A stretch of DNA of 64,000 bases from an uncultured Bacteroides sp. (GCA_964422385.1 CAYRBL010000001.1:19999-83998); one strand, 5' to 3'; positions 307 through 60,475 are shown, counted from the stretch's first letter. The notes: a model not told the origin generated them from the letters alone. Numbers and translations: made by a program.

Positions 307-307
307 T

Positions 308-1384: not shown

Positions 1385-3576
1385 TGGCTGTAACAATTTA
1401 TAACAAACTTGATTTAAAAAAGGCAGACGTACTAGATATTAGATATGGGCCTTGAAAAGATACAACTTCTGCAATTGCAGGAGTTGCATATAAAGCGGTA
1501 GGGCTAACTGTTGGTATAGTCATAGGTACTATTGATCCAAGTTATTTTGATTCGTCAGGTAGATTAACTGGGACTTTACCAATTAATTTACCATCTACTG
1601 CAAAAGTAGTAGAATATTGGTGAGAGACTGATACTTCAAGTTTAGTACTTAAATCACAAGATTTATCTACTTATTATAATAAAACTGAAACAGATAATTT
1701 ACTTAATGTAAAAGCTAATCAAACTATTTTAGTATCATTAATAAATCCTGATCCTATAACATTAAATATAGGAGATAAAGTTTATAATCCAGATGCTAAA
1801 TTAATATATAATGTTATATCAGGAAATCCAGATAATACTTATGATGCTGGAACAAGTCCACAGTTAGGAGTATTATATGAATGTAATAATTTACTTTATG
1901 AATGAAACGGCACTGATTTAATTTTATTAGGATCCTCTTCAGGCTTATTTGATGGAGATTATAATCATTTAACTAATAAACCTACATTAGGTACAGCTGC
2001 TGCTAAAAACATTCCTGCAACTGGAAATGCTTCTGCTACAGAAGTAGTATATGGTACAGATAGTAGATTAACAGATTCAAGAACTCCTAATTCACATGCT
2101 GCATCACATACAAATGGTACTGATGATATTGCAATAGCCACACCTAGTGTAAGTGGTAGTGAGGGAAGTAAAGGTTTATTATCTGCAATTGATAAAGAGA
2201 AATTAAATAGTATAGCAAGTGGCGCACAAGTAAATGTTGCAACTAATTTAGGACAAGGTACAATAACAACAACTACAGTTCCTTTAACATCTAGTACAGG
2301 TTCTGGAACTACTTTATCAGCAGCAACACAATCTGCTGCAGGTGTAATGTCGTCTACGGATAAAACCAAATTAGATGGTATAGCTAGTGGTGCTAATGTT
2401 GGTGTAGTTCCAAATGGTGCAATTACTGGAGCTACAAAAACTAAAATAACATATGATTCAAAAGGACTTGTAACTAGTGGTGCTGATGCTACGGCTGACG
2501 ATATATTAGACGGAACTAATAAACATTTATTAACAACTGCACAACAGACAGTGTTAAATAATACAAGTGGCACTAACTCTGGAGATAATGCAACCAACAG
2601 TCAATATAGTGGTTTGGCCACATCAAAACAAGATGTCTTAAGTGTAGATGCAAATGAGGGAATAACTATTACCGCAAATTCAATAGGAACTCTTTATAAT
2701 TCAACTATTTCAGATAGTGTTCAAAGTGTAGTAGTAGGTGGAGCTCCAGCACAAGCTGCATCTGTTTGAAAAGCAAAATCTTTAGTACAAGTTTTAGATA
2801 CTATTTTATTTCCAACTATTTTAGCATCAATAAAAACAAATAAATCAGTTGATTTAACTATAAGTGGTACAACAGGAACTTTAGAAAATGGCCAAACCAT
2901 TTCTCGAACTTTAACTGCAACATTTAATAGAGGGGAGATATATAATGGAGATGGTACAACAAATGCAAATCCACTTGTTGGGACTGCAACCCAATATACA
3001 TTTACAGGAACAAATATTTCAAGTACACCACAAGCTGGAAACACATTAGCAGTCTCAAACGTAGTTGTAGATGGTTCAAATAACTGAGCAGTTACAGTTA
3101 ATCATAATGCCGGCAGTGGAAATTATTTTGATAATAAAGGAAATATTGGAACCAATTTAGATGCAAATCGTGTTAGTGGGACATCAGTTGATTCTTCCTC
3201 AAGTCCAACTGTAACAGGTGTTTATCCTTGATTTTATTTAAAATCCTCTTCACCAATTACAGCGAATGCTATGGCTACTGCTATTCAAGCAGGTACAGCA
3301 ACAAAAGTAGTAGCATCAAGTACAGGAACAATATCTATACCTTATAACGTAAATGCACAGTATTTAGCAGTAGCTTATCCTGCAGCATCAACAACTAAGA
3401 TAGTATATTATGTAACTGCATTGGATAATGGAGCTATTACAGTAGTATTTGAGGCTGTAACAACACAGAGTGTAAACTCTCCTGATTCTTATTGGTCAGC
3501 ACAATCATATAAAATACATGTTAGTAAGTCTGCATTGACAAACTCTAACGCAACAATAGAATTAAGAAATTCATAA
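1384..3576 (+). CDS. tail fibre protein (730 aa with TGA=Trp)
   Basis: Merges track ORFs 2347-2769 and 3271-3576 with upstream open frame. Six in-frame TGA. Phage tail-fibre repeat motifs GLLSAIDKEKLNSI (about 2170-2215) and GVMSSTDKTKLDGI (about 2341-2385). N-terminus is paralogous to the next gene. Confidence 0.8.
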
Positions 3577-3577
3577 T

Positions 3578-6500: not shown

Positions 6501-6961
6501 AATATAAATTACTTTATAGGGTAATTGTAAATGGCGCTGGGTTAGTTCAAACTGTTACTACAGCAGATGATTATAGAGCACAAACTTCTTTAGCGGGAGG
6601 TGTAAGTGCAAGTACTACAGCATCAAGTGTTTCATTTGCTCCTTATAGTTCTGTTACAGCAAGTACTGTACAAACAGCAATACAACAATTAGCTAGAGTA
6701 CAATTAGGTGTATTTAAAAATGGATTAACATCAGTTGCACAACCACAAGCTTTTAGTTATCCTTATAATTTAACTTGTACAGCAGTAACTAAACAATTAA
6801 ATTGTAGTGATTATTCTGTAACAATTGGGGCGACTACTTATAATACAGCAAGTACTTTAGTGGGAGTTTCTATACCAGCTAATACTACAATAACTTTTAA
6901 TGATTTAACAATTTCAGGAGCAGGAGTAATAGCTAATGCTTTATTTACTTTTAATGAATAA
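3578..6961 (+). CDS. tail fibre protein (1127 aa with TGA=Trp)
   Basis: Merges track ORFs 3995-4726, 4922-5452, 5501-5833 and 6233-6961, all phase 2. Ten in-frame TGA, no TAA/TAG. Tandem fibre repeat YYRGDKTFQ.L.K.AVGL.NVDNTSD (4124-4400). N-terminal domain shared with CDS 1384-3576. Confidence 0.8.
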
Positions 6962-6967
6962 TAGAAT

Positions 6968-7222
6968 ATGATACAAATAACAGACACAGTACAATTTGAG
7001 AATGGTTTATTATCTGAACAAACAGATGAATTTAAACAATGGTATGGAGAAAATGTGGCTTCTCAAATTACAGATTTGCTTCCTATAGAAGCAAGAGATA
7101 AATATAATAGACCTTATTTATGAAAAGTTTCAGTAGCAGGATATACATTTGAAGTATATCCCCAATACATTTATGAAACAGCTTCTAATTGGGCAATGTC
7201 TAACATTTTAATTAAATTATAA
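6968..7222 (+). CDS. small hypothetical protein (84 aa) within tail-fibre cluster
   Basis: ATG 6968, one in-frame TGA (PYL-W-KVS), TAA 7220-7222 overlapping the next ATG. Not in the ORF track because it is split by TGA. Confidence 0.5.
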
Positions 7223-9951
7223 TGGCATCAAATTTATTTAAATTAAAAACTGTTCCAAATCCAGATGGAAGTGAATCATCTAATTTTGTAAATAATACAA
7301 GTTATGCATTTGTACATACTTATTTAGGAGATGATTCTACAGGAAATGGAACTAGAGAATATCCATTTAGAAGTGTAGCTAGGGCAGCATTAAAAAATAA
7401 TAAAATAGTATTTAGAGGAGTTATTAATGAAAGTCTAGTTAATATAGCTATTATTGGGGATGATATTAATCAACAAGTTACTACATCTAATTTTGGAATT
7501 ACATATGGACAAGGAACTAGTCTTGTTAATTTAACTACTGAATATCCAACTCCTATAGGATATGGACTACCTTTATCAAGAACAATATTCACTAAAAGTA
7601 ATTCTCCTTCTTTTGCTTCGACAAATGAAAATCAAGGATTTAGAAATTGTTTATGTTATGGTTTAATTTCTGGAACTAATTCATCAAGTATTGGAGTATT
7701 TATAAATAATACAGTTAATAGATTGAATTATAATGGAACTGGAGTACAATATGTAAAAAATTCAATTATAATAACTGATTTTACTCCTACTTCTTCATTA
7801 TCTTGATTTTATTATAATATATTATTAAGTAATACAATAATTAAAAGTAATGGAATAAATATAGTAATTCCAAATTTTACAAATGATAGTAAAGCAAATC
7901 TTCAAATTTTAAGAAATGCTTTACAATGTTCAGCTGGTTCTGAAGCTTTTGTTTATTCAAGTTATACATATGTAGCAGGAGTATCTGCAACTTTTACAGG
8001 AAGTATTAATGGTACTGGAACAACTGCTAAAATAGCACATGATTCTGGAGTTACTTGTTTTGGATTAAATAATTCTTATAATGGTACATTACAATCAGCA
8101 ATAACAGCAAATAGTACTCCAACTACAATTACATTATTGATATCAAATCCAACAGCATTTCCATCAACTGGAACAATTACTATTCCAAATACAGGAAGTA
8201 TTAGTGCATCAACAACATTAACAATGTTATCTAAAGATTCTTTTGGAAATGAAGTTAATTTAATTATTAAAGAAACTAGAAATGGAGGGAGTCATCCAAA
8301 TATTTTTAATAATTATAATACAAATATTACAACAACTTTAGGAACTACAATTCCAATAAATCCAGTAACTGCTTTAACTACTGTTGTTTTAACAAATGGT
8401 TCAGCTTTTCCTTCAACCGGAGATTTATTTATTACTAATGATGATGGAAGTGGGTATGAAGTATTTACTTATACTTCAAAATCAGGTAATAATTTTACAG
8501 GAAGTTATAAATTTCAAAAAGCACATACTAGTGGTGTTACAGTAATACAATATGGAAGTGTAATAGATTATACTTTAAATCCAGATGTAAATAATGAAGC
8601 ATTATGAGCAAGTGATATTGGAGCATATACAGGATGTTTTAAACCAACATCACCTGTAAATTCATCTGTAACAACATTTGGAACAGTAACAGATGTAAAT
8701 ACATCTGGAGTTGATACAGCCAATGTTTCAAATTTAATGTTAAAAAACTCCGATGATACAATATCTTTTCAAAGTAGTGGAACTGGACAAATATGAAATA
8801 GACTTAGGACTATTGGCGTTATTACAATTCCTATAGGTACTACATTTAAAGGTTTACAAACCATTTCTACAGATGGAAGTCCTTTTGGCTATTATTTTGG
8901 TAAATATCAAAATTTAGTTTCTGCAAGTTTTATTTATGCAACAAATGCAACAGGTAGTCCATCACCTACAACACTTAGTCCAAACTCTATTTATAAAGTA
9001 AGTAATATTGCACATGATATTACAAAAGCTATAATATATGGAAATACACAATATTTACCAGACTTTTTTATAAATACAATACCTATTGGTACTATTGCGG
9101 TAACAAACGGAAGTCCTAATGTTACAGGTACAAATACTACATTTACTAAATTTTATAAAGTAGGAGATACGATAGTAATAAATGGAATATCTAAAACTGT
9201 ATCTTCAGTTACTGATACAGCAATAATCGCTGATTCAAATTATACAGCAGCGTATAATGGAAGTTATACTCCTCCTTTAACATTTACTCTTACTAATCCT
9301 GGAAGTGGTACTGAAACAGTATTATATAAAATCTTAGGTGATCCAATAGAAAGTGTTGAAGTATATCCTTATGATGATTCTGCAGGAACAGTTCCAAGTG
9401 TAACGTTTCCTAAATTCTCAGCACCTTTAGCAGCACTAGTTTTATGTCTTTATTATAGTGCTACGGGAGCAAGTAGATATGAAAAAACAACTGGAGCTCC
9501 TGTTTTATTTTATGATTTAGTAAATATAGCACAGTTAATGGCTGATTTTCCTGGAACAAATCCAGTAACTACATTAGCAACAAGTTTAAGTGGGAATACA
9601 ACAACTGTAGTACTAACTTCATCATCAGGGTTTCCTCCATTTGGAACAGCAAGAGTTGGAGCAACACCTTTTGTTTATACTTCAATTACAAGTAATACTT
9701 TAAATGGATCGAATCAAACTATGGGAACAATTACTGCTGGAGAAAGAGTAGACTTATTATATAAATTAGATAATCCTAAAATATCATATTATTCTTCTGG
9801 AAGTGCAATTAATACAGGATGGCAAGTAAGTAATGCTGATGAAGAGTTTTTAACTCTATCACAGAGCGCTTATTTTACAACATCAACTCCATCATTTAAA
9901 TATTGTAAGTTAGAAATAAATGGTCATTTTGATTTAGCATTCGATTACTAA
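7222..9951 (+). CDS. large tail fibre/spike-like protein (909 aa with TGA=Trp)
   Basis: Merges track ORFs 7222-7806, 8137-8607 and 9538-9951, all phase 1. Three in-frame TGA. T/S/N-rich beta-type composition and position in the fibre cluster. Confidence 0.65.
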
Positions 9952-9952
9952 T

Positions 9953-10237
9953 ATGAGTTTATTATCAGAGCATTTAGCTATTCATAGTACAGATACAGCA
10001 AGAAATCAAATCGAAGCTGTATCTGTACCAAGGATATCAAGTATTGGTTTAGTTTTAGATTTTGGAATTGTTCCTTCAAATAATGCAAATAAATCTTTAA
10101 TTTCAAAAATCAGTAGAATTGGTGTAACTATAGATTATGGTGCTGTTCCTAATAAAAATTATTTTCCAACAAGAATTAATACTTTAGGAATTATAGTAGA
10201 TACTATACCTGCAAATTTAATGATACAAGTTTTATAA
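9953..10237 (+). CDS. small hypothetical protein (94 aa) with three internal I..xG...D.G.VP.N repeats
   Basis: Track ORF. Start is 1 nt after the upstream TAA. Repeats are ISSIGLVLDFGIVPSNN / ISRIGVTIDYGAVPNKN / INTLGIIVDTIPAN. Confidence 0.45.
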   Translation: MSLLSEHLAIHSTDTARNQIEAVSVPRISSIGLVLDFGIVPSNNANKSLISKISRIGVTIDYGAVPNKNYFPTRINTLGIIVDTIPANLMIQVL

Positions 10238-10238
10238 A

Positions 10239-10565
10239 ATGATTATATCAAATTTAATATTAATTATATTATTTGCAATTTATAATGGATTAATTATTAG
10301 GTGACAACAAAAAATAGATAGTGCGACATTATGACATATAGTATCGTTTATAATTAGAATTATATTAATTATCCAAATAGATAATATAGGACTAATGTTA
10401 ATATTATTTTTTATATCTTGATTTGGATATAATACAATTATAAATATACTTTTAAAACAAAAATGAAATTATTTTGGAAAATATGATTTTATTCAAGGTA
10501 CTTGATATTATCTTTTGAATATTATAATTTTATTAGTTGGTATTTATTTAACAATAAAAAATTAA
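10239..10565 (+). CDS. putative holin: 108-aa multi-pass membrane protein visible only with TGA=Trp
   Basis: ATG 10239 lies 1 nt after TAA. Five in-frame TGA (first at 10302-10304), no TGG, and TAA at 10563-10565. Translation is MIISNLILIILFAIYNGLIIRWQQKIDSATLWHIVSFIIRIILIIQIDNIGLMLILFFISWFGYNTIINILLKQKWNYFGKYDFIQGTWYYLLNIIILLVGIYLTIKN, with 3-4 hydrophobic helices. Sits immediately upstream of the endolysin. Confidence 0.6.
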
Positions 10566-10566: not shown

Positions 10567-11067
10567 ATGAGTAATATATTAATAGAATTAGTAACACATT
10601 TTGAGGGTCTTCATGATGGAGATCTTCATCAAATAGGTCTTCAACCTAAAATGGATCCAGTGGGAATCTGGACAGAAGGTTGGGGAAGAGCAATGATAGG
10701 TAAAGATGGAAAATTTATTAAAGGTGCAGACAAAAAAACTTTAGCTTATGCATCACAAACAATACATACCAAAGAAGAGGCAGATGCAGCATTATTAGTA
10801 GATTTGAAACCTTTTCAATTACAAGTTCATAGAAAAGTTACTATACCTCTAACTGAAGCTCAAGAAGCAGCATTGGTATCATTTTTTTATAATACAGGAG
10901 GAAGTAGCACACTTTGTAAGTTGGTTAATGCCAAAGACCCAAGTCTAGTAGACTGGTGGTCTTCTCATTATACTTCTGCCCAAGGAGTTGAATTGAAAGG
11001 TTTGAAATTAAGAAGACAAACTGAGGCTCATCTATTTTCTACAGGTGACCTTAAGTTTTATAACTAA
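10567..11067 (+). CDS. endolysin, GH24 (T4/lambda-type phage lysozyme)
   Basis: Motifs THFEG...D..G..T.GWG near the N-terminus and ALVSFFYNTG ... GLKLRRQTEAHLF are typical of the Phage_lysozyme/GH24 family. All Trp are TGG. TAA stop. Confidence 0.85.
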   Translation: MSNILIELVTHFEGLHDGDLHQIGLQPKMDPVGIWTEGWGRAMIGKDGKFIKGADKKTLAYASQTIHTKEEADAALLVDLKPFQLQVHRKVTIPLTEAQEAALVSFFYNTGGSSTLCKLVNAKDPSLVDWWSSHYTSAQGVELKGLKLRRQTEAHLFSTGDLKFYN

Positions 11068-11087
11068 AAAATAAATTAAATGTTATT

Positions 11088-11144
11088 CTACCCTTATTAT
11101 TAACAAAGTTTAATGAATATATATTTTGTTAGTAATAAAGGTAG
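11088..11144 (+). promoter_or_regulatory. long imperfect hairpin at the lysis/head module boundary
   Basis: CTACCCTTATTATTAACAAA (11088-11107) pairs with TTTGTTAGTAATAAAGGTAG (11125-11144): 18 Watson-Crick pairs, 1 G-U and 1 mismatch, with a 17-nt loop. No T-tract follows it. Confidence 0.5.
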
Positions 11145-11152
11145 TAACTTTG
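11145..11152 (+). promoter_or_regulatory. possible Bacteroidota-type -7 promoter box (TAnnTTTG)
   Basis: TAACTTTG matches the TAnnTTTG consensus, 86 nt upstream of ATG 11238. A TTTG at 11125 is only 16 nt upstream, shorter than the canonical spacing. A second exact match, TAAGTTTG, lies at 31733-31740 upstream of CDS 31765. Confidence 0.25.
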
Positions 11153-11237
11153 CACTAAATAATGGAATACAACTATTTCATTGATAAAGATGAATAAACG
11201 AGATAGATTTTAAATATTAAACAATTGTAAATGTAAA

Positions 11238-12224
11238 ATGATTATGGCAGACTTAGACAGCATCTTTGATGACGATTTAGAACTAGATAAACCTTTAGAT
11301 GAAGGCGGTGAGTACATCGAACCATCTGTGGATCCCGATAATTTTTTTGATGATGAACCAATTCCAGCAGGAACAGGTGATTCTGTATTAGATGAATATC
11401 TTAAGAGTAGAGGAGTGACAAATTCCACTGTTACAATATTAGATGATAACGCTGAAGAAAAAGAAGTTAATTTTTATGATCTAAGTAAAGATGAACAGCT
11501 GGAGATATTAAATTCAATTTCACAGAATGAGTCAGACACTGACTTGGATGAAAATGAAATAGAGTTAATAAATCATTTAAGATCTAATAACTTATCATGG
11601 AATGATTATTTGGAAGGTTATAAAAAATCAATTATTGATGAACTTGGAGTTCAACCTACTCAAACTTATGATATAGACGCTTACGATGACCAAGAACTTT
11701 ATCTGTTAGATTTAAAACAAAAATATGATTTATCAGACGAAGAGCTTTCAAAGGAGCTTGAAAAAGAATTACAAGATGAAACACTTTTCAAAAAGAAAGT
11801 GGACGTTCTTAGAGCAGAATATAAACAGCTAGAAGATCAATATAACGAGAATCAACAAGCAGAATTCGAGAAACAAAGAGAAGAACAATACAATCAGTTT
11901 TCGGACACGATGGTTAATGTTGCTTTGCAAACTCCAGAGTTCTACGGAATTGAATTAGAAGATGATGAGAAAAATGAGGTTCTTTCATTCCTGTTAGATT
12001 TAGACGAGAATGGAACAAGTGATTTTTATAAAAGCCTAAACGATCCAAAGAAGCTCTATGAAGCTGCATGGTTCTTACGTTATGGGAAAGAGTCATTCGA
12101 CGCTTTAAAAAATGCATATGAATCTGAGATAGCGAAGTTAAAGAAGCCAGATAAACCCAGTGCTGTAAGAAGAACAACATCTCCTACAGACAAACAAACA
12201 AACAGTATTCACGACTTATTTTAA
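11238..12224 (+). CDS. acidic coiled-coil protein, scaffold-like (328 aa)
   Basis: Track ORF (alternative ATG at 11244). Very D/E-rich with heptad-like segments (KKKVDVLRAEYKQLEDQYNENQQAEFEKQREEQ). Lies directly upstream of the capsid protein candidate. No TGA. Confidence 0.5.
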   Translation: MIMADLDSIFDDDLELDKPLDEGGEYIEPSVDPDNFFDDEPIPAGTGDSVLDEYLKSRGVTNSTVTILDDNAEEKEVNFYDLSKDEQLEILNSISQNESDTDLDENEIELINHLRSNNLSWNDYLEGYKKSIIDELGVQPTQTYDIDAYDDQELYLLDLKQKYDLSDEELSKELEKELQDETLFKKKVDVLRAEYKQLEDQYNENQQAEFEKQREEQYNQFSDTMVNVALQTPEFYGIELEDDEKNEVLSFLLDLDENGTSDFYKSLNDPKKLYEAAWFLRYGKESFDALKNAYESEIAKLKKPDKPSAVRRTTSPTDKQTNSIHDLF

Positions 12225-12236
12225 AACTAGATTACT

Positions 12237-13667
12237 ATGGTAGTAGCAAGTTACGTAACCGTAAAGCCAGAATTGGCACACAGTAGAACTTATGAAGATT
12301 TCTACAAATTATTAGGAACACGTCCTAAAATGATGGGAGTTATGGCCCGCATGTATACACATAATACAGCGACTTTCTTAACAGAAGCCTTAATGAACAT
12401 TTATTATAATCAAAAAACAGCTAACAAATTCCAACCAATTAACTCGTTAATGATCGAGTGGGAAATTGATGTTGAGTTCGTTAAAAGAGTTGAGTTCGCA
12501 GCTGCTCCAACTGGAGACGGAACTAACGGTTCTGATATCTTAATGTATTTCAAAGAAAGATATTATGAAAAATATGATACATTCAAAGTAGACGGTTCTC
12601 GTCAACAACTGATTGTAAAAACAACTCCTGTTAGAAAAGCAGATAATTTCTGGGAATATACAGTTCAATTAATTGACTCTGATTTCTCATCAATCTTAGA
12701 CACATCGTATTGCCAAATTGGTGGTACTACAAGATTCTTATCTAACATCATGCCTGAATATCATGAAGAAGGATATACAAAATATCAATCTAATATTGAA
12801 AAACACCGTAACTGGATTACAGAACATAGAAATGACATTTCTTATTCCGCTCGTTACGCACAAGCTGAAGATCAATTTATTAAAATCGCACAAGGCGAAG
12901 GCGCTGGCGAATTAAAAGAAAAGATCTTTAAACTAAATAAAATAGAAAAAGACTTACTAGAAAACTTCCAAACTGTAAAAAATAACCACTTACTATGGGG
13001 AAAAACTACAATGGATAAAAATGGTAAATCTACAGTACAAACTGAAGATGGTCGTCCACTTATCGCAGGTGATGGTCTTATTCCACAAATCGAAAGATTC
13101 GCATCTAAATACAAATACGCTAAACTTAACGTAAATGTAATTAACACAGTGATTGACCAAATGAATCAAAAAGCTGCTAATGCAACTGGTAACAGTTATA
13201 CATTCGTAGTTAATGATAGACTATGGGGACAAATCAATACAACTTTAGGAGACTGGTTGAAACTTTGGGGATCTACTCCAACAATGATGTATTCTAAAGC
13301 TGCTCAATCAATGGTGAAAGCTGACAACCCTATCAAAGTAGGTGGAACATTTGTATCTTACGAGATTGCAGGTAACCACGTAACTTTCATGGTTGACCGT
13401 GCTCTTACAAAAGAGTATGATAGAAAAGGTTATGGTATCTGTTTAGACATGTCTCCAGACGTATCTACTAACCAACCTGCTATCGCAGCATTTACTTTAG
13501 AAGGTGCTGAATTCGTTACTTCTAAATACCCAGGTGTTGGTGGAGTAGATGGTATCACTAGTGGTATCGTATCTAGCCCAGTAGCAGGATCTAAATTGAT
13601 CGTAGCTGGTTATTCTGGTATCGCAGCATTTGCACCTTACAAATCATTCATTATTGAAGAAGTGTAA
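12237..13667 (+). CDS. major capsid protein candidate (476 aa)
   Basis: Size and position (after the scaffold-like gene, before a strong terminator) fit an MCP. The composition resembles crAss-like major capsid proteins as I remember them. All 7 Trp are TGG. TAA stop. Confidence 0.7.
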   Translation: MVVASYVTVKPELAHSRTYEDFYKLLGTRPKMMGVMARMYTHNTATFLTEALMNIYYNQKTANKFQPINSLMIEWEIDVEFVKRVEFAAAPTGDGTNGSDILMYFKERYYEKYDTFKVDGSRQQLIVKTTPVRKADNFWEYTVQLIDSDFSSILDTSYCQIGGTTRFLSNIMPEYHEEGYTKYQSNIEKHRNWITEHRNDISYSARYAQAEDQFIKIAQGEGAGELKEKIFKLNKIEKDLLENFQTVKNNHLLWGKTTMDKNGKSTVQTEDGRPLIAGDGLIPQIERFASKYKYAKLNVNVINTVIDQMNQKAANATGNSYTFVVNDRLWGQINTTLGDWLKLWGSTPTMMYSKAAQSMVKADNPIKVGGTFVSYEIAGNHVTFMVDRALTKEYDRKGYGICLDMSPDVSTNQPAIAAFTLEGAEFVTSKYPGVGGVDGITSGIVSSPVAGSKLIVAGYSGIAAFAPYKSFIIEEV

Positions 13668-13678
13668 GTAATTAATTA

Positions 13679-13712
13679 GGGAGAGGTCCGCCTCTCCCTT
13701 ATTTAGATTTTT
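13679..13712 (+). terminator. rho-independent terminator after the capsid gene
   Basis: Perfect 8-bp GC-rich stem GGGAGAGG (13679-86), loop TCCG, CCTCTCCC (13691-98), followed by TTATTTAGATTTTT. Confidence 0.8.
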
Positions 13713-13750
13713 ACTATTAAGATAGAAAATAACAAAAATATATAATATAA

Positions 13751-14647
13751 ATGAATATGAGTAATGAAATAATTCTTAGAAGTGCTTATGGAAAAGTGAA
13801 TCAAACCTACTTTATCCAACCATGCCCAAATCCAAAAACAGGTAAATTGCCAGCATGTGTAAAGACAGTTGATTCAAATGGTGACATGATTTTGTCAGAA
13901 GAAGATGTTAGAAAAATGAGTAAAGGTGAAGCCCACTTTATTGCGGCTAACCAAGTATTCGAAATCGTAGATGGTACAAGTTTTGACCTTGATGATGTAA
14001 TTGATAAAGCAAAGTGGGAGTCAATTGAACATTGTAATTGGATTGCTAAAGATAGATTCCAACGAGACCAAGATGGTAATTTAATCATTGATGGTAATGC
14101 TAGAAAATATGGTGTAGCTGATTTATATGTTGAACGCCCAGGCGAACTTACAAAAGCTAAGCTGGATAAAAAACAACTTATCTTTAGAGCATCACAATAT
14201 ATCTACGAAGACTCTGAAGTTGAGAGAATCAAAAAATGTAGAGTTTTAGGACGTAACCTTAACAACGCTATTCCAGCTGACATACTTGATTATTTAATTG
14301 AAACAGCAGAAAAGACTCCTAAAAAGATTATTGATCTTTATGAAGGAGAAGATTGGAAAATGCATTTATTCTTATTAGATGCAATTGATCGCGGAGTAAT
14401 CCGTAGAGCAGATGGTATCTATAAATATGATGATAAAATGTTAGGTGGTTCTATGGAAGCTACAATAACATTCCTAAGAGATATTAGATTTAAGAAAATG
14501 TTAGATTCCATCAAACGTGAGACTTACCCAGAATTACAACCTAAACAAGTAATTCAAGAGATGGAAGAAGATTTCACTAAAGATATTCCTTACTTTGAAG
14601 ACGAGCAAAAAGCAGAATCTACAAAGAAAGTACAAACAAAAAAATAA
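13751..14647 (+). CDS. head-module hypothetical protein (298 aa)
   Basis: Track ORF, no TGA, TAA stop. Syntenic with the conserved genes downstream of the MCP in podophage head modules. Confidence 0.7.
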   Translation: MNMSNEIILRSAYGKVNQTYFIQPCPNPKTGKLPACVKTVDSNGDMILSEEDVRKMSKGEAHFIAANQVFEIVDGTSFDLDDVIDKAKWESIEHCNWIAKDRFQRDQDGNLIIDGNARKYGVADLYVERPGELTKAKLDKKQLIFRASQYIYEDSEVERIKKCRVLGRNLNNAIPADILDYLIETAEKTPKKIIDLYEGEDWKMHLFLLDAIDRGVIRRADGIYKYDDKMLGGSMEATITFLRDIRFKKMLDSIKRETYPELQPKQVIQEMEEDFTKDIPYFEDEQKAESTKKVQTKK

Positions 14648-14657
14648 AATTAATTAA

Positions 14658-15800
14658 ATGACAGCAAAGCAAGTCTTTGAGTATGCTTTAGTTGAATTAA
14701 ATAAAAAAGATGCTCCAAGTTTATTGCTAGAGGATTATAATTATTTTATTAACAAAGCAGCAAATCAATACATCAATAAGATGTATAATGCATACGATGT
14801 CAATCAACAAAAGACTGATGATTTAAGAGTTTTAAAAAGCTCCGCAGTGTTAATACCATCACAATCATCTAATTGGTCTGCTTCTAATTTGTTAAACAAT
14901 ACTTACGAAGTTGATTTACCTGATGATTATTTACATATTTTAAATTGTGTTGTAGAATACACAGTGCTTAAAAACTATAAGTGTTATAATGCAGGTACTC
15001 CTTGGCAACAAGGGGCTAAAAGAATTACTGCAGATATGTGGTCTCAATTAATTCATAATTATTATTTACGCCCGTCATATAAGAATCCATACTTTTATAT
15101 AAATAATATAACTACAGATTCTATATTTCCAACTGCTGATAACCAAGTTAGCATTGCCACTAAAACAACTATTGTTTTAGATGAAATTGGCGACATTGTG
15201 CCAAATGACACAATCACGATTAATGGAGTTACATATACATTTAAAACTACACCAACATTACCGTTTGGGGTCAAATGTTCATATGGTGCGGTTACTGAAT
15301 ATTCAAGCTTAACATATTTAAAATTTAAATTGTTAGAATCAACAGACCCTGTTATTACTAGAAACACATACAGTGGATCTTTAATAATTTCTGGTTATGA
15401 ATTAACAGTAACTCATACTTGTGGTGGTGATGTAGATGTAGTTACTACATCTGGAAATGATTTAGTACAACGTAGTGAAGATATTAGATATGGGAATAAG
15501 TCTAAAATTAGAATGGAAATTCGTTATGGTAAGGATTCTTCTACATTTGGCCTGTCAAAAGTTTATATTGATTATTTAAAAACCCCACAATTCATCAGAT
15601 TGACACAAGACGAGATTGATGAAGTTGAAGATACATCACAGATATTAGAATTTCCTGATTATGTATGTCAAGAGATTGTAAATGAATTGGTTAAATTATT
15701 AATGGAAAATTCAAGTGATCCAAGATTACAAACAAATATCCCAATTAATCAATCAATTGCTTCTCCACAAGCACAACAAGAAGCTCCACGAAAACGATAG
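14658..15800 (+). CDS. head-module hypothetical protein (380 aa)
   Basis: Track ORF, no TGA, TAG stop. Confidence 0.7.
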   Translation: MTAKQVFEYALVELNKKDAPSLLLEDYNYFINKAANQYINKMYNAYDVNQQKTDDLRVLKSSAVLIPSQSSNWSASNLLNNTYEVDLPDDYLHILNCVVEYTVLKNYKCYNAGTPWQQGAKRITADMWSQLIHNYYLRPSYKNPYFYINNITTDSIFPTADNQVSIATKTTIVLDEIGDIVPNDTITINGVTYTFKTTPTLPFGVKCSYGAVTEYSSLTYLKFKLLESTDPVITRNTYSGSLIISGYELTVTHTCGGDVDVVTTSGNDLVQRSEDIRYGNKSKIRMEIRYGKDSSTFGLSKVYIDYLKTPQFIRLTQDEIDEVEDTSQILEFPDYVCQEIVNELVKLLMENSSDPRLQTNIPINQSIASPQAQQEAPRKR

Positions 15801-15836
15801 ATAACCCGTTTAAAACAAACATAAAATTTTAGAAAA

Positions 15837-16928
15837 ATGTTTAATTACACAACAACAACAATTTTAAACTCAAACTTAGATTCGAGTGGCTTAACTAAAG
15901 TTACAGGCTCTTCTGCAGGAGTTAACGTTCTTAGAGTAAACAACTTTAAGAAAGCAGGTATTGTAAGCGTTTATAAAAGACCTTACGCAGCAGGTGTAGC
16001 GGAAATTGCGAAAGTAACTATCCCTACAGTAACAGCTGGAAAAGTAATTAGATTAACAGTAGACATCAGACTGTCTCAACAAACAGATTCTGAATATGCT
16101 AACACATATTTATATTTCAAAAAACCAGTTGTTGTAGAAGTACTTGCTACAGGAACTGCTGCAACAGATGCAACTGCATTAGCTGCTGCATTTAATGGTT
16201 TAAAAACTGAATTTGGTTTTGGTTATTGCATTGCTGCAAAAATCAATACAGCTGATGTTCAAGTTACAGCTATTAACAACAACCAAAGATTTTGGGCAAT
16301 GACTGTTGAATCAGATAAAGCCAGCACTAACTCATTAATTCAACCAGAATATGATGATATTACAGCTAGCACTTTCTCTGTAACAAGACCAGGTTCTGTA
16401 GGATTTGGAGATGATGAATATATGGTTAAATCTATTATGTACCCAACTTACGAAAATACTCGTTACTTTGGTACAAACAAAGAAGAAAGACCAATCCTTG
16501 GTGGTAACTATACACAATACACATTAAGATATTCAATCGACAAAAATGTAGATTATAATATTGGTATCGCTGGTATGGGACAAAAATCTATTACTAATCA
16601 CGTATTCTATGTTAAATCAGATGTAGTTGCTGCTTTTGAAGCTGCTTTACAAACTGCAGCTGTTGATGTAGTAACAATTGGTGGTGACCAAGATTTAATC
16701 ATCGTTGGGGATCAAACAGTAGCAGCTAGCGCTGGTGCAACTCAATACACTGTATTGAATGCTTTAGCAGGAGAAACTGTTAACTGGACTAACTCAACAT
16801 TAACTGGAACTACTTCAGCTAATACTACAGGTATCTTAACAGTAGGTTCTACAACTGGAACAACTACATTGACTGCAACTGGAGCAACTTCAGGAAGAGT
16901 AGCCACAATGGTTATTACAGTAGTTTAA
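15837..16928 (+). CDS. capsid-associated protein with C-terminal bacterial Ig-like (Big_2) domain (363 aa)
   Basis: C-terminal approx 90 aa (nt approx 16659-16925): VNWTNSTL..SANTTGILTVGSTTGTTTLTATGATSGRVATMVITV matches the Big_2 pattern. Followed by a strong terminator. Confidence 0.65.
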   Translation: MFNYTTTTILNSNLDSSGLTKVTGSSAGVNVLRVNNFKKAGIVSVYKRPYAAGVAEIAKVTIPTVTAGKVIRLTVDIRLSQQTDSEYANTYLYFKKPVVVEVLATGTAATDATALAAAFNGLKTEFGFGYCIAAKINTADVQVTAINNNQRFWAMTVESDKASTNSLIQPEYDDITASTFSVTRPGSVGFGDDEYMVKSIMYPTYENTRYFGTNKEERPILGGNYTQYTLRYSIDKNVDYNIGIAGMGQKSITNHVFYVKSDVVAAFEAALQTAAVDVVTIGGDQDLIIVGDQTVAASAGATQYTVLNALAGETVNWTNSTLTGTTSANTTGILTVGSTTGTTTLTATGATSGRVATMVITVV

Positions 16929-16952
16929 TCTTAATTGATAACTTTCTTAAAA

Positions 16953-16984
16953 GGAGCGAGCAGCACTTGCTCGTTCCTTTTTTT
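16953..16984 (+). terminator. rho-independent terminator
   Basis: GGAGCGAGCA (16953-62), loop GCACT, TGCTCGTTCC (16968-77). This gives a 10-bp stem with one G-U pair, followed by TTTTTTT. Confidence 0.8.
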
Positions 16985-16996
16985 ATTTAAACTAAT

Positions 16997-17665
16997 ATGA
17001 TAAATAAACTAGCATCAGCAATATACAATGATATAGTTTCTGGTCTTGCCGGGATTACATCAACACCATCAATATCACTTGACCAATTAGAAGATGATAT
17101 TGTTGACGAAAGACTTCAGATAATAAAGGAATATGCTGCAAAGAATTTAGTTCCTAGAAACGATTTATTGATGTCAATAAATTGCATTCAGTTAGATTGT
17201 CTATCATTAGACAAATGTCCATGCGGAGATAAAACATATTCCAAACCACAATTGCATTTTGAATTACCACAAATCGTAAATGATATGGGTGCAGATGCAG
17301 TCGAATTTATTGGTGCAGTAGACAGAGAAGTATTCTTTAAAGTTTACACAAACACCTCATATCAATTTCACAAATATTTAAAACGTGGGGCACAACGTCC
17401 TTTCGTTTATATTGAACCCACTCCTAATACAAATAACATGTATGATGCATGGGTATTCGGAGCACCATTATTAAAAACTCTTACAGTAATTGCAATCTTT
17501 AAAGATCCAAGACAATTAATGCAATATGATTGCTGCGCAGGAGATGATATCGAAAATTATTCTTTTATCTCTGCTGAAATTAAAAAACGCCTTACTGAAA
17601 AGAAAATAAGATATTACCGTAGTTTAGCGGTACAACCAACGCCAAATAATCAAGCCCCAAAATAA
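16997..17665 (+). CDS. head/neck-module hypothetical protein (222 aa)
   Basis: Track ORF, no TGA. TAA overlaps the ATG of the next gene. Confidence 0.65.
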   Translation: MINKLASAIYNDIVSGLAGITSTPSISLDQLEDDIVDERLQIIKEYAAKNLVPRNDLLMSINCIQLDCLSLDKCPCGDKTYSKPQLHFELPQIVNDMGADAVEFIGAVDREVFFKVYTNTSYQFHKYLKRGAQRPFVYIEPTPNTNNMYDAWVFGAPLLKTLTVIAIFKDPRQLMQYDCCAGDDIENYSFISAEIKKRLTEKKIRYYRSLAVQPTPNNQAPK

Positions 17666-18384
17666 TGTATAGTGGGATAATATATAAATATACTTCGCCA
17701 TCAGGCAAAATATATATAGGACAGACATGTAATGAATATAGAAGAAGAAAACAATTCCTTAATATTAAGGGTACATATAGCTCTCCTAAAATAGACAACG
17801 CTAGGAAAAAATATAAACCTGAAAATTTTTTATATGAAGTTTTATATCAACACAAATCAAATAATAAAAAAGAACTGATTGATATATTAAATGAAAAAGA
17901 AATATTCTATATTAATGAATATGACTCAATAAAAATTGGATATAATTGTCAGCCTGGAGGATTATGTCTTATAAAGACAGAGGATTCCATAAAAAAGGCT
18001 ACAAAGAAAATATCTAAAATTGTACTACAGTATTCTTTAAATGGTGATTTTATAAAAGAATGGTCATCAACAATGGAAATAGAAAGAGTTTTAAATATTG
18101 ACCATACGCAAATTAGTGGTAATTGTTTAGGTAAAACCGATTATTGTCACGGATATATTTTTAAGTATAAAACTAATAAAATTATATTTAAGATTAATAA
18201 AGTAATTCCACAAAAAAGTAAAAAGAAATGCGGTATATGTCAAATAGACTTAAATGGAAATGAATTAAACAGATGGGATACTGTTACAAAAGCAGCAAAA
18301 GAACTACATATATGTAGAAATCATTTAAAAGAAATTGCGCTAGGTAGAACAGAATATAAAGGACATATTTATAAATTAATTTAA
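17665..18384 (+). CDS. GIY-YIG homing endonuclease, free-standing (239 aa)
   Basis: N-terminal GIIYKYTSPSGKIYIGQT ... R ... H ... YNCQPGG (GIY-YIG core). Two C-terminal NUMOD/IENR-like HTH repeats (EWSSTMEIERVLNIDHTQISGNCLGKT; RWDTVTKAAKELHICRNHLKEIALGRT). Confidence 0.8.
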   Translation: MYSGIIYKYTSPSGKIYIGQTCNEYRRRKQFLNIKGTYSSPKIDNARKKYKPENFLYEVLYQHKSNNKKELIDILNEKEIFYINEYDSIKIGYNCQPGGLCLIKTEDSIKKATKKISKIVLQYSLNGDFIKEWSSTMEIERVLNIDHTQISGNCLGKTDYCHGYIFKYKTNKIIFKINKVIPQKSKKKCGICQIDLNGNELNRWDTVTKAAKELHICRNHLKEIALGRTEYKGHIYKLI

Positions 18385-18390: not shown

Positions 18391-19095
18391 ATGAGAGATT
18401 ATTCTTTTAATACAGCGTACACACAAGCAAGAGAATTATATGGATTAGAATTAGATCCAGATGTATTTGAATCAATAGGATTGATTGCTTGGGACAGAAT
18501 TGGAAATAAAGACTATAGACTATATAAATACAGTACTCAACCTATTGAAGATGCTTTAGGTTATTGGTACATAGATCTTCCTTGTAATTGTGATATTATT
18601 GAAGCAGTTACAACTAACTACGAAGATTATCAAAAAACTACACCTACTACATTAGCGGGTAATAATCAGAATGGGTGGATTGAAGGATATGTTGAATCAA
18701 GAAAATACAATACCGGTAATTTATATTCATCTGGTAAATATATTAAATATAGAGAAGAGGGAAATCGTATTATTATGAATGACCACTTTGAAGTAATTAA
18801 TATTTTCTATAAAGGCGTTGTTGTAGATGATACAGGACTACCTATGCTTAACGATAAAGAAATGGATGCAATAGCAGCTTTCTGTATTTTTGCAGATACA
18901 AGAAAGAAAGCTATCACAACTAAAGACCAAACAAGTTGGCAAATGGTTCCTTATTTAGAACAACAATGACTAATGAAATGTACTCAAGCTAGAGTACCTG
19001 ATTATATTAATCAAAATGAAATGGATGAAATCCTAAACGTAATCGCATCATGGGATAGAAAACGTTATGGTAAATCATTTAAACCAATAAGATAG
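18391..19095 (+). CDS. neck/tail-module hypothetical protein (234 aa with TGA=Trp)
   Basis: Track ORF 18391-18969 continues in frame through TGA 18967-18969 to TAG 19093-19095 (LEQQ-W-LMKCTQARVPDYINQNEMDEILNVIASWDRKRYGKSFKPIR). Confidence 0.7.
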
Positions 19096-20126
19096 TGAGA
19101 ATATTATTTAATCATGGATTAACCCCTGGAGAGATTTACACAAATACTCCTAAATCAATTATTGATAAAAAATGAAGATGAATGATCAGTCGCTATGGTA
19201 GCACTGATTCTTATGAAGATGCTATTGCTGATCCATTTAAATATTGCTTTGGTTTAATACTCCACAAAATAATTGAGGATAAAGTACGATTTAGAGTTCC
19301 AGCGAAGACTGAAGCATATATTGATTTTGAGATAGTCTCAGGCGAAAAATTCATTTCGCAGCGACAAAATGGAAGGTTCTCAGAGATTGATTTTATAGAG
19401 TCAGACTTCACTGGATACTTTCTAATGTATTATTTTAAGGCTAAGGCATACCAGAAGGCAATGCCAATTTATATTGGCGGAGAATTAAAAAGAAAATTTC
19501 TTGACAAAATTAACTCTGGTGTAAAGTTCTATACAACCAAAGATGTTACAATTGAAGATTTTATTGACCCAGTCCATGAAAGATTTCCTGATTTTACAAG
19601 AGCTGAAATCAAGAGACTACTACTTTATGGATTCAGAAGAATGCACTCAGCAATTAAGTTTGGCTGTGCAATCTCTATTAATACAAGAAAATATATTAAT
19701 TGTTTAGCTTATATAGGTAAATTAACACTAACTCCAGAAAAAAATATTAAAGAGTATAGTATAAGACGAGATAGGAAATTAAGAAAAATCGAAGGATGGA
19801 AGAAAGCTGAATTCGATGGATATTATTATATAGGTCTAAATCCTACAGGATTTGACCGCTGACTTGAAGATAATAAAACAAGTAAATCAATTGCTAAGTT
19901 CAATAATGTAATTCCTCGAAAAATACAAGAAGAAATATATTATAAAGCAAAGCATCTTCATGTGTTTAGATTTAAAAGAAAAACTTTTAAAGGGTGGGCA
20001 TATTGAGCTGATGAATTAAAGATCCGCGATTTAGAATATTTGGGAGAAGCTTATGAGCATAAATTTCATCCATCTTATAAAACATGAATAGAATTAAAAA
20101 AAGAATATGAGAAAAGAAGCAGTTAA
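19095..20126 (+). CDS. hypothetical protein (up to 343 aa with TGA=Trp); start uncertain
   Basis: Phase-0 frame opens after TAA 19080. Candidate starts are GTG 19095 (overlapping TAG as TAGTG) or ATG 19182. Five in-frame TGA (19173, 19179, 19860, approx 20005, approx 20086). TAA 20124-20126 lies 20 nt inside the next gene. Confidence 0.6.
20106..20123 (+). repeat. direct repeat, left copy (TATGAGAAAAGAAGCAGT)
   Basis: Exact 18/18 identity with 20943-20960. Confidence 0.9.
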
Positions 20127-20940
20127 TGAATATGTAGGATATGTATATAAAGTTATTAATAAAATTAATGGTAAAATTTATATTGGTGAAACTTTAAATA
20201 CATTAGAAAAACGATTTTATCAACATTGTAATGATGCTTATAATAAAACTTATTGGAATTATTACTTTTATAGAGCTGTCAGAAAATATGGAAAAGAAAA
20301 TTTTGAAATATTTGAAATACAAAAAGTTATAGATAGTGATAGAAAAATCTTGAAAAGTAAATTATTAGAATTAGAAGAAGTATATATTAAAGAATATGAT
20401 TCGTTTAATTTTGGGTATAATAGTAATAGTGGAGGTAGACATCCTCTGTATGTTAGTGCGGAAACACGAATATTACAAAGTAAAAGAAAGCTTGAAGATC
20501 CTCGAACTAAAGATAATTTAAAATACGCTAGAAGTTTTCATCATAATGAAAAAGAAGTAGTTGCTTATAATTACGAAACTGGAGAACAAATTAAAAAATT
20601 TAATTCTATTAAAGAAGCTTCTGAGTATTATAATATTGATAGAAGCGGTATTGTAAAAGTATGTAAGAAAATTACTAATTATTTAGGTAACATTGATGAT
20701 ATCAAACTTACTTGAAGATACCCTGATGATATATATGAGATAAACTATACAATTAAAGTATATGATGAATTGGGAAATCTTTTGAATAGATTTATCAGTT
20801 TTGCCGATGCTGCTAGATTTTACAATATTAAACACCAAGAAACAATTGCTAGATGTTGTCAGGGCAAAACTAAATGTACTGGTAGAAAGAAAGGTGAAAA
20901 ATTAATATGGAGATTTATAAATGATGATTTTAAATTATAA
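20107..20940 (+). CDS. GIY-YIG homing endonuclease, free-standing (277 aa with TGA=Trp)
   Basis: YVGYVYKVINKINGKIYIGET...R...H...YNSNSGG core. HTH repeats FNSIKEASEYYNIDRSGIVKVCKK and FISFADAARFYNIKHQETIARCCQGK, the second lying beyond in-frame TGA 20713-20715. TAA 20938-20940. Confidence 0.8.
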
Positions 20941-20942
20941 AT

Positions 20943-20960
20943 TATGAGAAAAGAAGCAGT
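20943..20960 (+). repeat. direct repeat, right copy (TATGAGAAAAGAAGCAGT)
   Basis: Exact 18/18 identity with 20106-20123. Confidence 0.9.
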
Positions 20961-22092
20961 GAACACTTTCTCTGGCGGGCTTAACTACGATCTTAACCCA
21001 ATCACAACTCCAAATAGCGTGCTTACTGAATGTATAAACGGGACTTTTATTACATTCAATGGAGATGAACTAGCACTGCAAAATGATGCTGGTAATACAA
21101 AAATACTAGTTCCGGGAACAGAACTTGATCCAAAATATGTGGAATTATCAGAAGGATTTTATCCCATTGGAGTAAAAGAATATGGTGGTGTATTATATAT
21201 TGTTTCTGGAAAACAAGGAACTAATCCAGATGGGAGTGATGACCTAATAGAATTTGGAAGTTATCCAAGTCCTGAAATATTAGATGAAGAAAACCAGGGT
21301 TCTGGTAATTCATATTCTTTTTCAAATCCTTCAACTACAACAATGTATACACCAAACGTAATAAGTTCGTATGATTTTAAGCCCGGAAATTCTATAGTTT
21401 TTAGTAAACCAATTTTATCCCCAGACAATACGGATACATCAAATATAACATATTATAGAAAAGGTACTTATACTGATTATCAGAAAAAGATATATGTTGT
21501 GAAGTTATATTTACAATTATCGAATGGATATATTGACTTAACTGATGATGTTTGGAAAAGATATGCTGATTATTATACAATTAATGTAGGAGATTTAAAT
21601 CAATCCTCTGGAATGAATTTTTGATTTAATGATTCTAATTTTAAATATTATTGTAATACAAACTATAAAGGAAAACTACTAATCTCAGTAGAGTTAGAAG
21701 ATTTAAATACTTTTGAGTTAAGTAGTTATACGGTAGGATTTAATCCTGCTGGAGATAGTTTTAGATTTATATTTAAGATAAAATTTATAAATGGAACTAC
21801 TTGAACAATTAATAAAATTAAAACAATTTATACTATAGGAAGTGATACTCCAATAAATACTGAACAAACTATAAATGGAGAAATAATAAATATTACTTAC
21901 GATATTCCTTTAAATATGGCAGGTGAGCCTTTTACATTTAACTTTATTCCAAAGTTTGTATATTCTTCTGATGATGTTACTAATTTATTACCAGCGAATT
22001 ATTTAGTTAAGTATACTATTTCTGGAATTCAAGAGTTACGGAATAGTTCAGAGTATTCTTATTCTGACTATATAATGCAAGATTATAATTAA
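20944..22092 (+). CDS. tail-module structural protein (382 aa with TGA=Trp)
   Basis: Track ORF 20944-21624 continues in phase through TGA 21622 and one more TGA to TAA 22090-22092. Confidence 0.65.
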
Positions 22093-22112
22093 TAATTTAA
22101 TAAATAACAAAT

Positions 22113-22757
22113 ATGTCAACAGCAATAGACACAATAAAATCAGCAATATCTACCATTATTACAAATGGTGGTAATTTAATAACAAAAAGTACACATACTG
22201 AGGCAAATAGTGCAATGATAGATGCATTATATTATCAAGATTGAGGAATTCCAAAACCGTGGTTTGGGGCAACTGCTCCAGCGAATCATAAATTATGTGA
22301 TGGAACAGCAGTATTAATTGAAGATTGTAACCCTGCATTTGTAACAGCAATGCATGATGCAGGATTTGATACAGGTGGTATAAGTATAACATTGCCATAT
22401 ATATATCCTGGAGATTCATTAATACAAGCAGGTGGGGCATATGTATTAAATGTTAGAGGTGGGGAATCAACTCATACTTTATCTGTAGCTGAAATGGCTG
22501 CGCATAAACATTATATATTTGCCAATCATAATGGAACAACATTAACCTCTGTAATAAATTGATCAGAAAAATCAGTAGCCGTAGAAAGTACATCACCTAA
22601 TTCATCAGATTATCCTAAGTATAATATGCAATCTGGTTATGACGGATCAATTAGTCCAGATGCTACTATGGGAGTAACATCGTCTATTGGTTCTGGAACA
22701 CCTCATAATAATATGCCTCCATACTATCCTATTAATTATATTATAAGATACGCATAA
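22113..22757 (+). CDS. phage tail-collar-domain protein (214 aa with TGA=Trp)
   Basis: ATG 22113, same phase as track ORF 22350-22562, two in-frame TGA. Collar-domain signature GGESTHTLSVAEMAAHKH ... GSGTPHNNMPPYYPINYII. Confidence 0.75.
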
Positions 22758-30208: not shown

Positions 30209-30209
30209 T

Positions 30210-30788: not shown

Positions 30789-30789
30789 G

Positions 30790-60474: not shown

Positions 60475-60475
60475 T

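Follow-up and report, generated by a model that had tools for sequence, protein, structure and literature searches.

Gene-specific avoidance of a reassigned TGA codon in the late genes of a divergent crAss-like phage

Why would a phage that reads TGA as tryptophan (Trp, W) keep one run of its virion genes free of this codon when the genes on either side use it freely? The question is raised by a 64,000-nucleotide stretch of DNA filed under an uncultured Bacteroides sp. (the window, which corresponds to about positions 68,199-132,198 of a 163,047-bp contig, ENA ERZ4223863 NODE_25), in which the original prediction had described a TGA-free head block between TGA-rich tail-fibre/lysis and tail blocks. 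The window has a GC content of 30.9% and all long open reading frames (ORFs) of its 64 kb lie on the + strand; when TGA is read as sense (gene calling with translation table 4) it resolves into 35 contiguous + strand genes, g1-g35, which together hold 62 in-frame TGA codons and represent the late strand, with the virion and lysis genes, of a divergent crAss-like phage. We find that the conserved feature is gene-specific avoidance of TGA in g10, g11 (the major capsid protein, MCP) and g14, and partly in g12, and that it follows the general codon bias of these genes.

An in-frame recount over the re-called genes bore out the TGA counts that had been given per block, including the 10 TGA against 3 TGG of CDS 3578-6961. 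Block A (1-10565) holds 28 TGA and 11 TGG in 3,488 codons, block B (10567-18384) 0 TGA and 24 TGG in 2,480 codons, block C (18391-31398) 25 TGA and 27 TGG, block D (31407-56876) 9 TGA and 56 TGG, and block E (56878-64000) 0 TGA and 25 TGG, or 0 of 32 with full-length g35. The figure for block C depends on g18, which likely starts at GTG 19095, with a 1-base overlap with the g17 TAG stop (19093-19097), because homology to the N-termini of relatives requires this start: the 29 residues upstream of its first ATG (19182) are kept in relatives and include two TGA-encoded Trp, and counting from that ATG gives 23 TGA and 27 TGG. The heterogeneity of the five blocks is pronounced (chi-square p = 5.5e-14), as is the difference between block B and blocks A and C combined (Fisher exact p = 5e-8). 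All blocks have a comparable Trp density (7.7-11.6 per 1000 codons); what differs is thus the choice of codon and not the Trp content. Moreover, the A-ending share of the other A/G-ending two-fold codons (K, E, Q, L, R) is 83-91% in every block, which therefore puts the neutral TGA share at about 85%; block A (72%) is the only block to approach this value, and block B lies far below it.

As a unit with edges at 10567 and 18384, the TGA-free block is not conserved, and the endolysin gene, g13 and g15 carry TGA in relatives. The features discussed here are given below with their counts; those marked 'across lineages' are TGA over all Trp codons pooled over distinct lineages, which are not independent of one another, and the g18 lineage count takes the window's row from ATG 19182. 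NNC denotes the share of C-ending codons in the NNY sets N, Y, F, D, H, C and I, a classical signature of translational selection.

1-10565, + strand: block A, comprising the end of the post-portal gene g1, a putative tail-fibre/receptor-binding module g2-g6 (role judged from size, composition and position, without a family match), g7 and g8
10239-10565, + strand: g8, putative holin-like protein of 108 aa with several hydrophobic stretches, directly 5' of the endolysin gene, no match in PHROGs; 5 of 5 Trp codons TGA; NNC 0.025
10554-10555, no strand: homology breakpoint from which the related loci L001, L002, L004 and L008 align, 12 nt 5' of the g9 start
10567-11067, + strand: g9, endolysin (Phage_lysozyme); 0 TGA and 4 TGG; 9/18 across lineages
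11238-12224, + strand: g10, acidic protein 5' of the MCP gene, scaffold-like candidate from position and composition only; TGA 0/2 here, 1/13 across 11 lineages
12237-13667, + strand: g11, MCP (Crass_capsid, PF23898; phrog_11589, major head protein, also matched); TGA 0/7 here, 5/64 across 9 lineages; highest NNC of the window, 0.50
13678-13699, + strand: terminator-like GC hairpin of 9 bp, immediately 3' of the MCP gene
13751-16928, + strand: g12, g13 and g14, head-module proteins without assigned function; TGA 0/3, 0/3 and 0/2 here, 6/29, 5/10 and 0/12 across lineages
16949-16981, + strand: terminator-like hairpin of 15 bp with a T run, immediately 3' of g14
16997-17665, + strand: g15, predicted tail ring protein and not a head protein, from a weak CrAss_Ring_2 match (16.1 bits against a cut-off of 27); TGA 0/1 here, 8/12 across lineages
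17665-18384, + strand: g16, GIY-YIG/NUMOD homing endonuclease, a mobile insertion found only here and in L001/L002; TGA 0/2
18391-19095, + strand: g17, CrAss_Ring_1 tail ring protein (31.1 bits against the Pfam cut-off of 27); TGA 1/5 here, 29/49 across lineages
19095-20126, + strand: g18, conserved tail-module protein, start corrected to GTG 19095; 5 TGA and 2 TGG here, 49/56 across lineages
22757-26935, + strand: g22, crAss muzzle protein (crAss_MUZ, 89.6 bits); 10 TGA and 10 TGG, 5 of the TGA sites aligning to W in a standard-code relative
31407-56876, + strand: block D, giant virion or cargo-type genes g29-g33; 9 TGA and 56 TGG; NNC about 0.2
56878-64000, + strand: block E, g34 and the PD-(D/E)XK-domain gene g35; 0 TGA

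Relatives carry TGA at 1-2 of the 7 Trp codons of the MCP gene and at 2-3 of the 4 of the endolysin gene, as well as in g12, g13 and g15. Even so the MCP gene is strongly depleted: over nine lineages its TGA share stands against K/E/Q codons that are 86% A-ending (Fisher p = 2e-39, the lineages not being independent), and of its fully conserved K/E/Q columns 65% are A/G polymorphic among these lineages while W stays TGG. Relative to the neutral expectation TGA is also depleted in g10 (p = 4e-8), g12 (p = 2.5e-13) and g14 (p = 2.7e-12); in g15 and g18 its share is indistinguishable from the neutral A/G expectation. Some relatives have fibre genes without any TGA (0/15, 0/11 and 0/5), and therefore fibre function itself does not demand this codon. 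TerL, with TGA at 4 of 17 Trp codons in this genome, is the most TGA-rich gene of relatives (7-13 TGA against 1-6 TGG). The homologues of g35 in relatives hold 13-22 TGA against 4-11 TGG, and only in this genome does block E lack TGA; how well blocks D and E are conserved was judged only from 26-41% identical homologues next to ThyX. On comparable genes, this genome is among the least TGA-converted of its clade.

The 'head block' is not a purely head module: besides the MCP gene and the scaffold-like g10 it contains the endolysin gene, g12-g14, the weak CrAss_Ring_2 match g15 and the homing endonuclease g16. For g12-g14 neither Pfam nor PHROGs gave a match and a PDB sequence search returned nothing meaningful; a single-sequence AlphaFold model of g14 (pLDDT 31) was discarded.

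What, then, sets the avoiding genes apart? In the window NNC follows the order MCP, g14 (0.40), g12 (0.32), g15 and g10 (both 0.31), with the fibre genes at 0.04-0.09 and g8 lowest. The TGA share falls as NNC rises (Spearman rho -0.72, p = 1e-4; logistic likelihood-ratio p = 1.4e-14), and in the late genes of relatives (196 genes, 14 relatives) it declines from 0.85 through 0.77, 0.61, 0.51 and 0.33 to 0.06 over rising NNC bins (p = 5e-31). Within the MCP genes themselves weaker bias tends to mean more TGA (L014, NNC 0.19, 2/7), with L015 as an exception (0.26, 0/8). In the standard-code outgroup the NNC ranking is topped by the same genes (MCP 0.60, g14 0.41, g12 0.39), and the bias therefore predates recoding and is independent of it. 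The two terminator-like hairpins follow the MCP gene and g14, the genes with the strongest codon bias, which fits genes of high output; lying inside block B, they also mean that this block is not one transcription unit. A Bacteroides-type promoter motif, TTTG...TANNTTTG, was not enriched in the window (7 against 5.9 expected), and sigma-70-like sites were not above shuffles there. The low-bias genes of block B (g9, g13, g15 and g16) have TGA at 0 of 10 Trp codons, which by a rough estimate from the window's own regression (P about 0.05) is only marginally unexpected.

One earlier proposal was that fast-evolving receptor-binding and tail genes accumulate TGG to TGA changes under AT pressure faster than conserved genes do. 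Its AT-pressure half stands, as the TGA share tracks synonymous AT-richness and codon bias per gene; its fast-evolution half does not survive the comparison of g18 with g13 and g14. Evolutionary rate as a cause was rejected: g18 is 54-75% identical among lineages (38% in the most distant) yet 88% TGA, g13 and g14 are about 45-65% identical yet g14 has no TGA in any lineage, and in a standard-code relative W lies opposite TGA sites no less often than opposite TGG sites (41% against 33%).

That relative is MT835470, whose homologues have no in-frame stops in any case and which therefore uses the standard code. Against it, the window's TGA sites face W at 7 of 17 alignable positions and Y, F, L and similar residues at the rest, the same residue profile as at TGG sites. 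Glycine (code 25) and serine were ruled out as readings of TGA, with G or S at none of the TGA sites in this alignment, and among 5-11 recoded lineages TGA and TGG swap at conserved W columns. Together with MT835492, MT835470 is the nearest genome of the annotated phage collection, at only 52% MCP identity; the MCP is about 25% identical to those of named crAss phages (uncultured phages cr125_1, cr114_1 and cr4_1). The IMG/VR relatives have MCPs that are 66-94% identical and DNA that is only 67-80% identical, a divergence that is useful because synonymous sites have turned over. The crAss gene order downstream of the MCP gene, with ring proteins and muzzle, is present by Pfam.

The recoding is phage-controlled and not native to the host, as had been predicted: the phage has its own tRNA(UCA), and its early genes are without sense TGA and in some cases end in TGA. 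The coding strand flips after g35, and the opposite-strand genes beyond hold 0 sense TGA against 21 TGG. TGA serves as the stop of 2 of the 12 early genes called after g35 and of 2 of the 7 minus-strand genes in L265, or 3-4 of about 19-25 overall. L265 is the window's own upstream region, recovered by a PhoH homologue search (an exact-sequence look-up of code-11 fragments near window positions 300-1384, made for the left flank, found no match), and it carries the tRNA(UCA) at 6929-7021 (93 nt; ARAGORN, and Rfam RF00005 at 49.8 bits). This gene marks the 5' end of the + strand late block, about 14.6 kb before window position 1 and outside the window. Its variable arm is about 25 nt long, and like L223 1002-1094 it has A1-U72 and G73, which we take to be Trp identity elements. 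At the same position most relatives have a 72-75-nt tRNA-Trp-like form; carriers of tRNA(UCA) among them are L162/L169, L165, L168, L171, L209-L211, L223 and L226, and in eight relatives it lies about 6-9.6 kb 5' of TerL on the late strand. No suppressor tRNA was found near ThyX in any of 37 related loci scanned; the tRNA sits at the opposite end of the late strand. The Pfam labels of the genes called in about 107 kb (window, L029 and L265, with about 56 kb of the contig outside) included no release factor 1 or TrpRS; in published recoding cases such code-change genes are optional, not required.

Several observations concern the tRNA and its surroundings. In L163 (about 3050-3740, same contig as L015), and also in L167, the tRNA(UCA) gene is split between anticodon nucleotides 34 and 35 by about 640 nt with a 175-aa ORF; the anticodon stem is preserved through compensatory changes and the gene is missed by ARAGORN. 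The insertion resembles a group I intron, placed where such introns classically lie in tRNA genes, but a comparison with Rfam gave no intron family match. In more distant relatives (L140, L154) there are 90-nt amber suppressors (CTA) whose extra arm is similar. Directly 3' of the suppressor tRNA, at the head of the late strand, L265 7151-9412 encodes 753 aa with 0 TGA and 15 TGG, a product that by eye only looks like a class II ribonucleotide reductase; PhoH and then a PD-(D/E)XK protein follow, a layout shared with L223, and in L013 and L210 PhoH comes directly after the tRNA. On the early strand of the window's own contig (L029 22197-22240) a gene ends in TGA-TGA with a third in-frame TGA four codons on, before a same-frame ThyX start, and this tandem may serve to prevent fusion by read-through when the suppressor is at work.

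Do the edges of block B mark recombination? They are gene junctions of 1-7 nt, and of the two places where the original prediction would look for breakpoints, near 10566 and 18390, only the left one has one. The left TGA boundary coincides with the homology breakpoint at 10554-10555, to the left of which the DNA of the closest relatives no longer aligns, short patches in L006 and L024 apart, and the G+C content of third codon positions (GC3) is 0.077 in block A, the lowest of the window, against 0.16-0.21 elsewhere (0.205 on the other side of this boundary). Homology continues unbroken across 18390 in L001, the sole local novelty being the mobile homing endonuclease g16. The idea that the modules have different recombinational origins is thus partly supported, by the left boundary and by the discordant identity of g35, only 26-41% to homologues from phages in which that of the MCP reaches 66-92%, and not at the right edge of block B. 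IMG/VR scans found no close relatives of g34 and g35. In the ThyX-linked locus L037 (13205-21067, minus strand), giant late-strand ORFs without TGA (0/14 and 0/5) sit where other loci have the g34/g35 homologues; L037 is probably a standard-code member of the wider group, and as only one of its two giant ORFs matched a window protein (g33), and weakly, it is at best a model donor of TGA-free modules. The simplest reading of blocks D and E would be a recent import from a lineage with little TGA, with earlier expression as an alternative cause of their low TGA content.

Taken together, these results suggest that mutation pressure, translational selection and module history jointly make the pattern, a reading to which we give a probability of roughly 0.55. 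The phage would infect a standard-code host, its own tRNA(UCA) reading UGA as Trp. Given such decoding, TGG and TGA would become a synonymous pair, and AT mutation pressure would drive TGG to TGA toward about 85%. Selection for efficient and complete translation would oppose TGA in proportion to the amount of protein needed, as UGA read by a phage suppressor likely competes with release factor 2 (RF2) of the host and TGG is read by host tRNA-Trp without such competition. The MCP gene, the scaffold-like g10, g14 and g12 would keep TGG because they have the strongest general codon bias, and low-copy fibres, TerL, ring proteins and the holin-like g8 would drift to TGA. Neither the fibre module left of 10554 nor, probably, that of g30-g35 would share the origin of the head module, their TGA content reflecting past residence, with blocks D and E perhaps acquired recently. 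The sharp 0 of 24 in block B would then be the sum of selection, module history and some chance.

A number of our own results weigh against this account. After NNC is fitted the block term stays (p = 3.7e-6), NNC after the block is fitted is marginal (p = 0.059), and the two predictors are confounded; NNC could partly reflect module history and not expression. Blocks D and E, with NNC about 0.2 and TGA at 9 of 97 Trp codons, lie well under the relatives' curve (0.33-0.51 at that NNC), so that codon bias is not enough to explain them. That g10, g12 and g14 are made in large amounts is a prediction from codon bias, position and hairpins. Finally, signs of RF2 competition did not appear in the base after TGA compared with that after TGG (chi-square p = 0.80), in relative position within the gene (p = 0.60) or in gene length, which adds nothing to the regression (p = 0.46).

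Module history could instead be the main driver, with TGA content measuring residence time in a TGA-decoding AT-rich lineage, the fibres coming from a heavily recoded phage and g30-g35 (perhaps the head module as well) recently from low-TGA lineages. The breakpoint exactly at the left boundary, the low GC3 of block A, the divergence of g35 from TGA-rich homologues when the apparent counterparts in L037 are TGA-free, and the block effect that persists after NNC all point this way. Against it, the head module is common to the relatives and its synonymous turnover is heavy (DNA 73-80% identical where the MCP is 92-94% identical, with the polymorphic K/E/Q columns noted above), yet W stays TGG, and time alone therefore cannot explain block B; nor is there a breakpoint at 18390, and IMG/VR scans did not find a donor lineage for g34/g35. 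We regard history as the main driver as doubtful. That the host natively uses code 4, the unevenness being incidental, is extremely improbable. An AT-rich genome and late genes in which TGA is clearly Trp are what such a host would lead one to expect, but early genes lack sense TGA and several end in TGA, one in tandem, and the phage has its own tRNA(UCA). Overall TGA makes up about 30% of Trp codons, and 0% across the 32 kb that early and head genes span, against 80-90% in code-4 genomes (10.1101/2022.06.29.495998). No Shine-Dalgarno-like motifs precede the gene starts of the window either. Their absence fits a Bacteroidota host.

Another explanation extends the model of Borges and colleagues to the inside of the late operon and makes TGA a graded translational timer, an adaptive programme of regulation in which the number and density of TGA codons set when and how much of each late protein is made as suppressor tRNA accumulates, heads first, then tails, with fibres and g8 last. 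The Trp-rich g8 beside the endolysin gene, all five of its Trp codons TGA, matches the published bias of lysis-cassette transmembrane proteins, and the place of the tRNA, at the late strand's 5' end, is the one that Pfennig et al. reported for suppressor tRNAs; early genes are strictly without TGA, and every lineage has little TGA in the MCP and scaffold-like genes. A timer nevertheless seems unlikely to us, as relatives tolerate TGA in the MCP, endolysin, g12, g13 and g15 genes, g15 and g18 show no excess over the neutral share, fibre genes may lack TGA altogether, and TerL, needed alongside heads, is the most TGA-rich gene of relatives. Moreover, the TGA share follows general codon bias whatever the function, and TGA density shows no trend along the operon. 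The fuller version, a rheostat tuned within one late strand so that capsid is made at once and fibres, TerL and above all the holin-like g8 wait for the long-variable-arm tRNA(UCA), we hold to be a shade less probable again; if it were true, the order of virion assembly and lysis would be set by the genetic code itself. For the head block, the temporal control put forward in the original prediction finds no support, given the same TGA-bearing genes of relatives and the mismatch between block B and transcription units; for the early strand it is plausible.

Other features of the virion module deserve mention. In several relatives the MCP gene, uninterrupted in the window, is split by an insertion with a GIY-YIG-like ORF (L019 7108-10876, L020 988-3759, L021 10001-12772 and L024 10001-12286), which suggests an intron or homing-endonuclease insertion. 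Across the virion module of the window there are three GIY-YIG/NUMOD homing endonucleases, g16, g19 (20107-20940) and g28 (30790-31398), whose TGA shares of 0/2, 1/3 and 1/1 of Trp codons are roughly as in neighbouring genes. The giant proteins (1,636-3,136 aa) have helicase-like and PD-(D/E)XK domains; ORFs of 1,636, 2,954 and 3,136 aa lie at the position expected for a virion-packaged RNA polymerase, where Pfam gave only helicase-like AAA and PD-(D/E)XK matches.

If mutation pressure and translational selection act together as proposed, this phage offers a quantified example of stop-to-sense reassignment part-way through, in which a reassigned codon spreads gene by gene after a suppressor tRNA exists, mutation bias setting the rate and translational selection opposing it, with the major capsid gene last. 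For annotation, neither one code per genome nor two blocks would fit: code 11 calls the TGA-free capsid genes correctly and shreds their fibre, TerL and tail neighbours. Adaptive 'lysis-timer' readings would first need a neutral baseline of A/G-ending synonymous codons and general codon bias.

How does this compare with known systems? Partial TGA-to-Trp recoding of late genes, with suppressor tRNAs, is established for crAss-like phages (Yutin 2021, PMC7886860), and the Zeta-group phage Lera has TGA in 41 of 231 ORFs (Babkin 2025, PMC12386605); its named TGA genes are the muzzle, two of three ring proteins, lysins, holin, TerL, RNAP and helicase, the MCP not being among them. The phage described here shares with these the Crass_capsid, ring, muzzle and giant proteins, TGA in a subset of mostly late genes, an opal suppressor tRNA, a large genome (163 kb) and many homing endonucleases. 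It differs in lineage, its MCP being only distantly related to those of named crAss phages and no Lera match appearing in the phage collection, in giant genes that are nearly TGA-free, and in the 93-nt long-variable-arm form of its suppressor tRNA.

A gene-family bias in the use of recoded stops, with lysis transmembrane proteins most recoded and an AT-driven route, was reported by Borges and colleagues (Borges 2021, 10.1101/2021.08.26.457843; Nat Microbiol 2022). The likenesses are partial recoding, standard-code and recoded relatives at short evolutionary distance, recoded structural and lysis genes with replication genes spared, AT-richness as a proposed precursor, and a putative lysis-cassette transmembrane protein as the most recoded gene; the endolysin here is, in contrast, TGA-free. 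That work tested for enrichment in lysis genes and avoidance in integrases, and its text as searched contains no capsid avoidance or link to codon bias. In our data the 5 of 5 TGA of g8 is at n = 5 not distinguishable from a neutral share of about 85-90%, and the endolysin gene, 0 of 4 here, reaches one half across lineages.

Multi-code phage genomes have also been viewed as blocks (Mgcod), with the suppressor tRNA at the 5' end of the recoded strand (Pfennig 2022, 10.1101/2022.06.29.495998; Ivanova et al. 2014). Here too the code switch is a strand switch, from early genes in standard or dual code to recoded late genes, and the suppressor tRNA is at the 5' end, but the recoded strand contains 7.8 kb of TGA-free head genes, more than 7 kb of g34-g35 and TGA-free genes next to the tRNA. 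A two-block picture is too coarse for this phage, whose variation is gradual and runs from gene to gene. Selection for translation is known in turn to act on the synonymous codons of highly expressed phage genes, for example from deoptimisation of the T7 capsid gene (PMC5592923). We found no paper linking TGA avoidance in capsid genes to general codon bias. In keeping with codon-usage theory, the MCP gene is strongest both for C-ending NNY codons and for the 'safe' Trp codon, and the ranking MCP, g14, g12 recurs in the standard-code relative; what differs is that the disfavoured synonym is a stop codon of the host, so that its cost is presumably premature termination and not only slow decoding. 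Partial late-gene recoding in crAss-like phages having already been published, the link to codon bias is a modest refinement of it and not a new mechanism.

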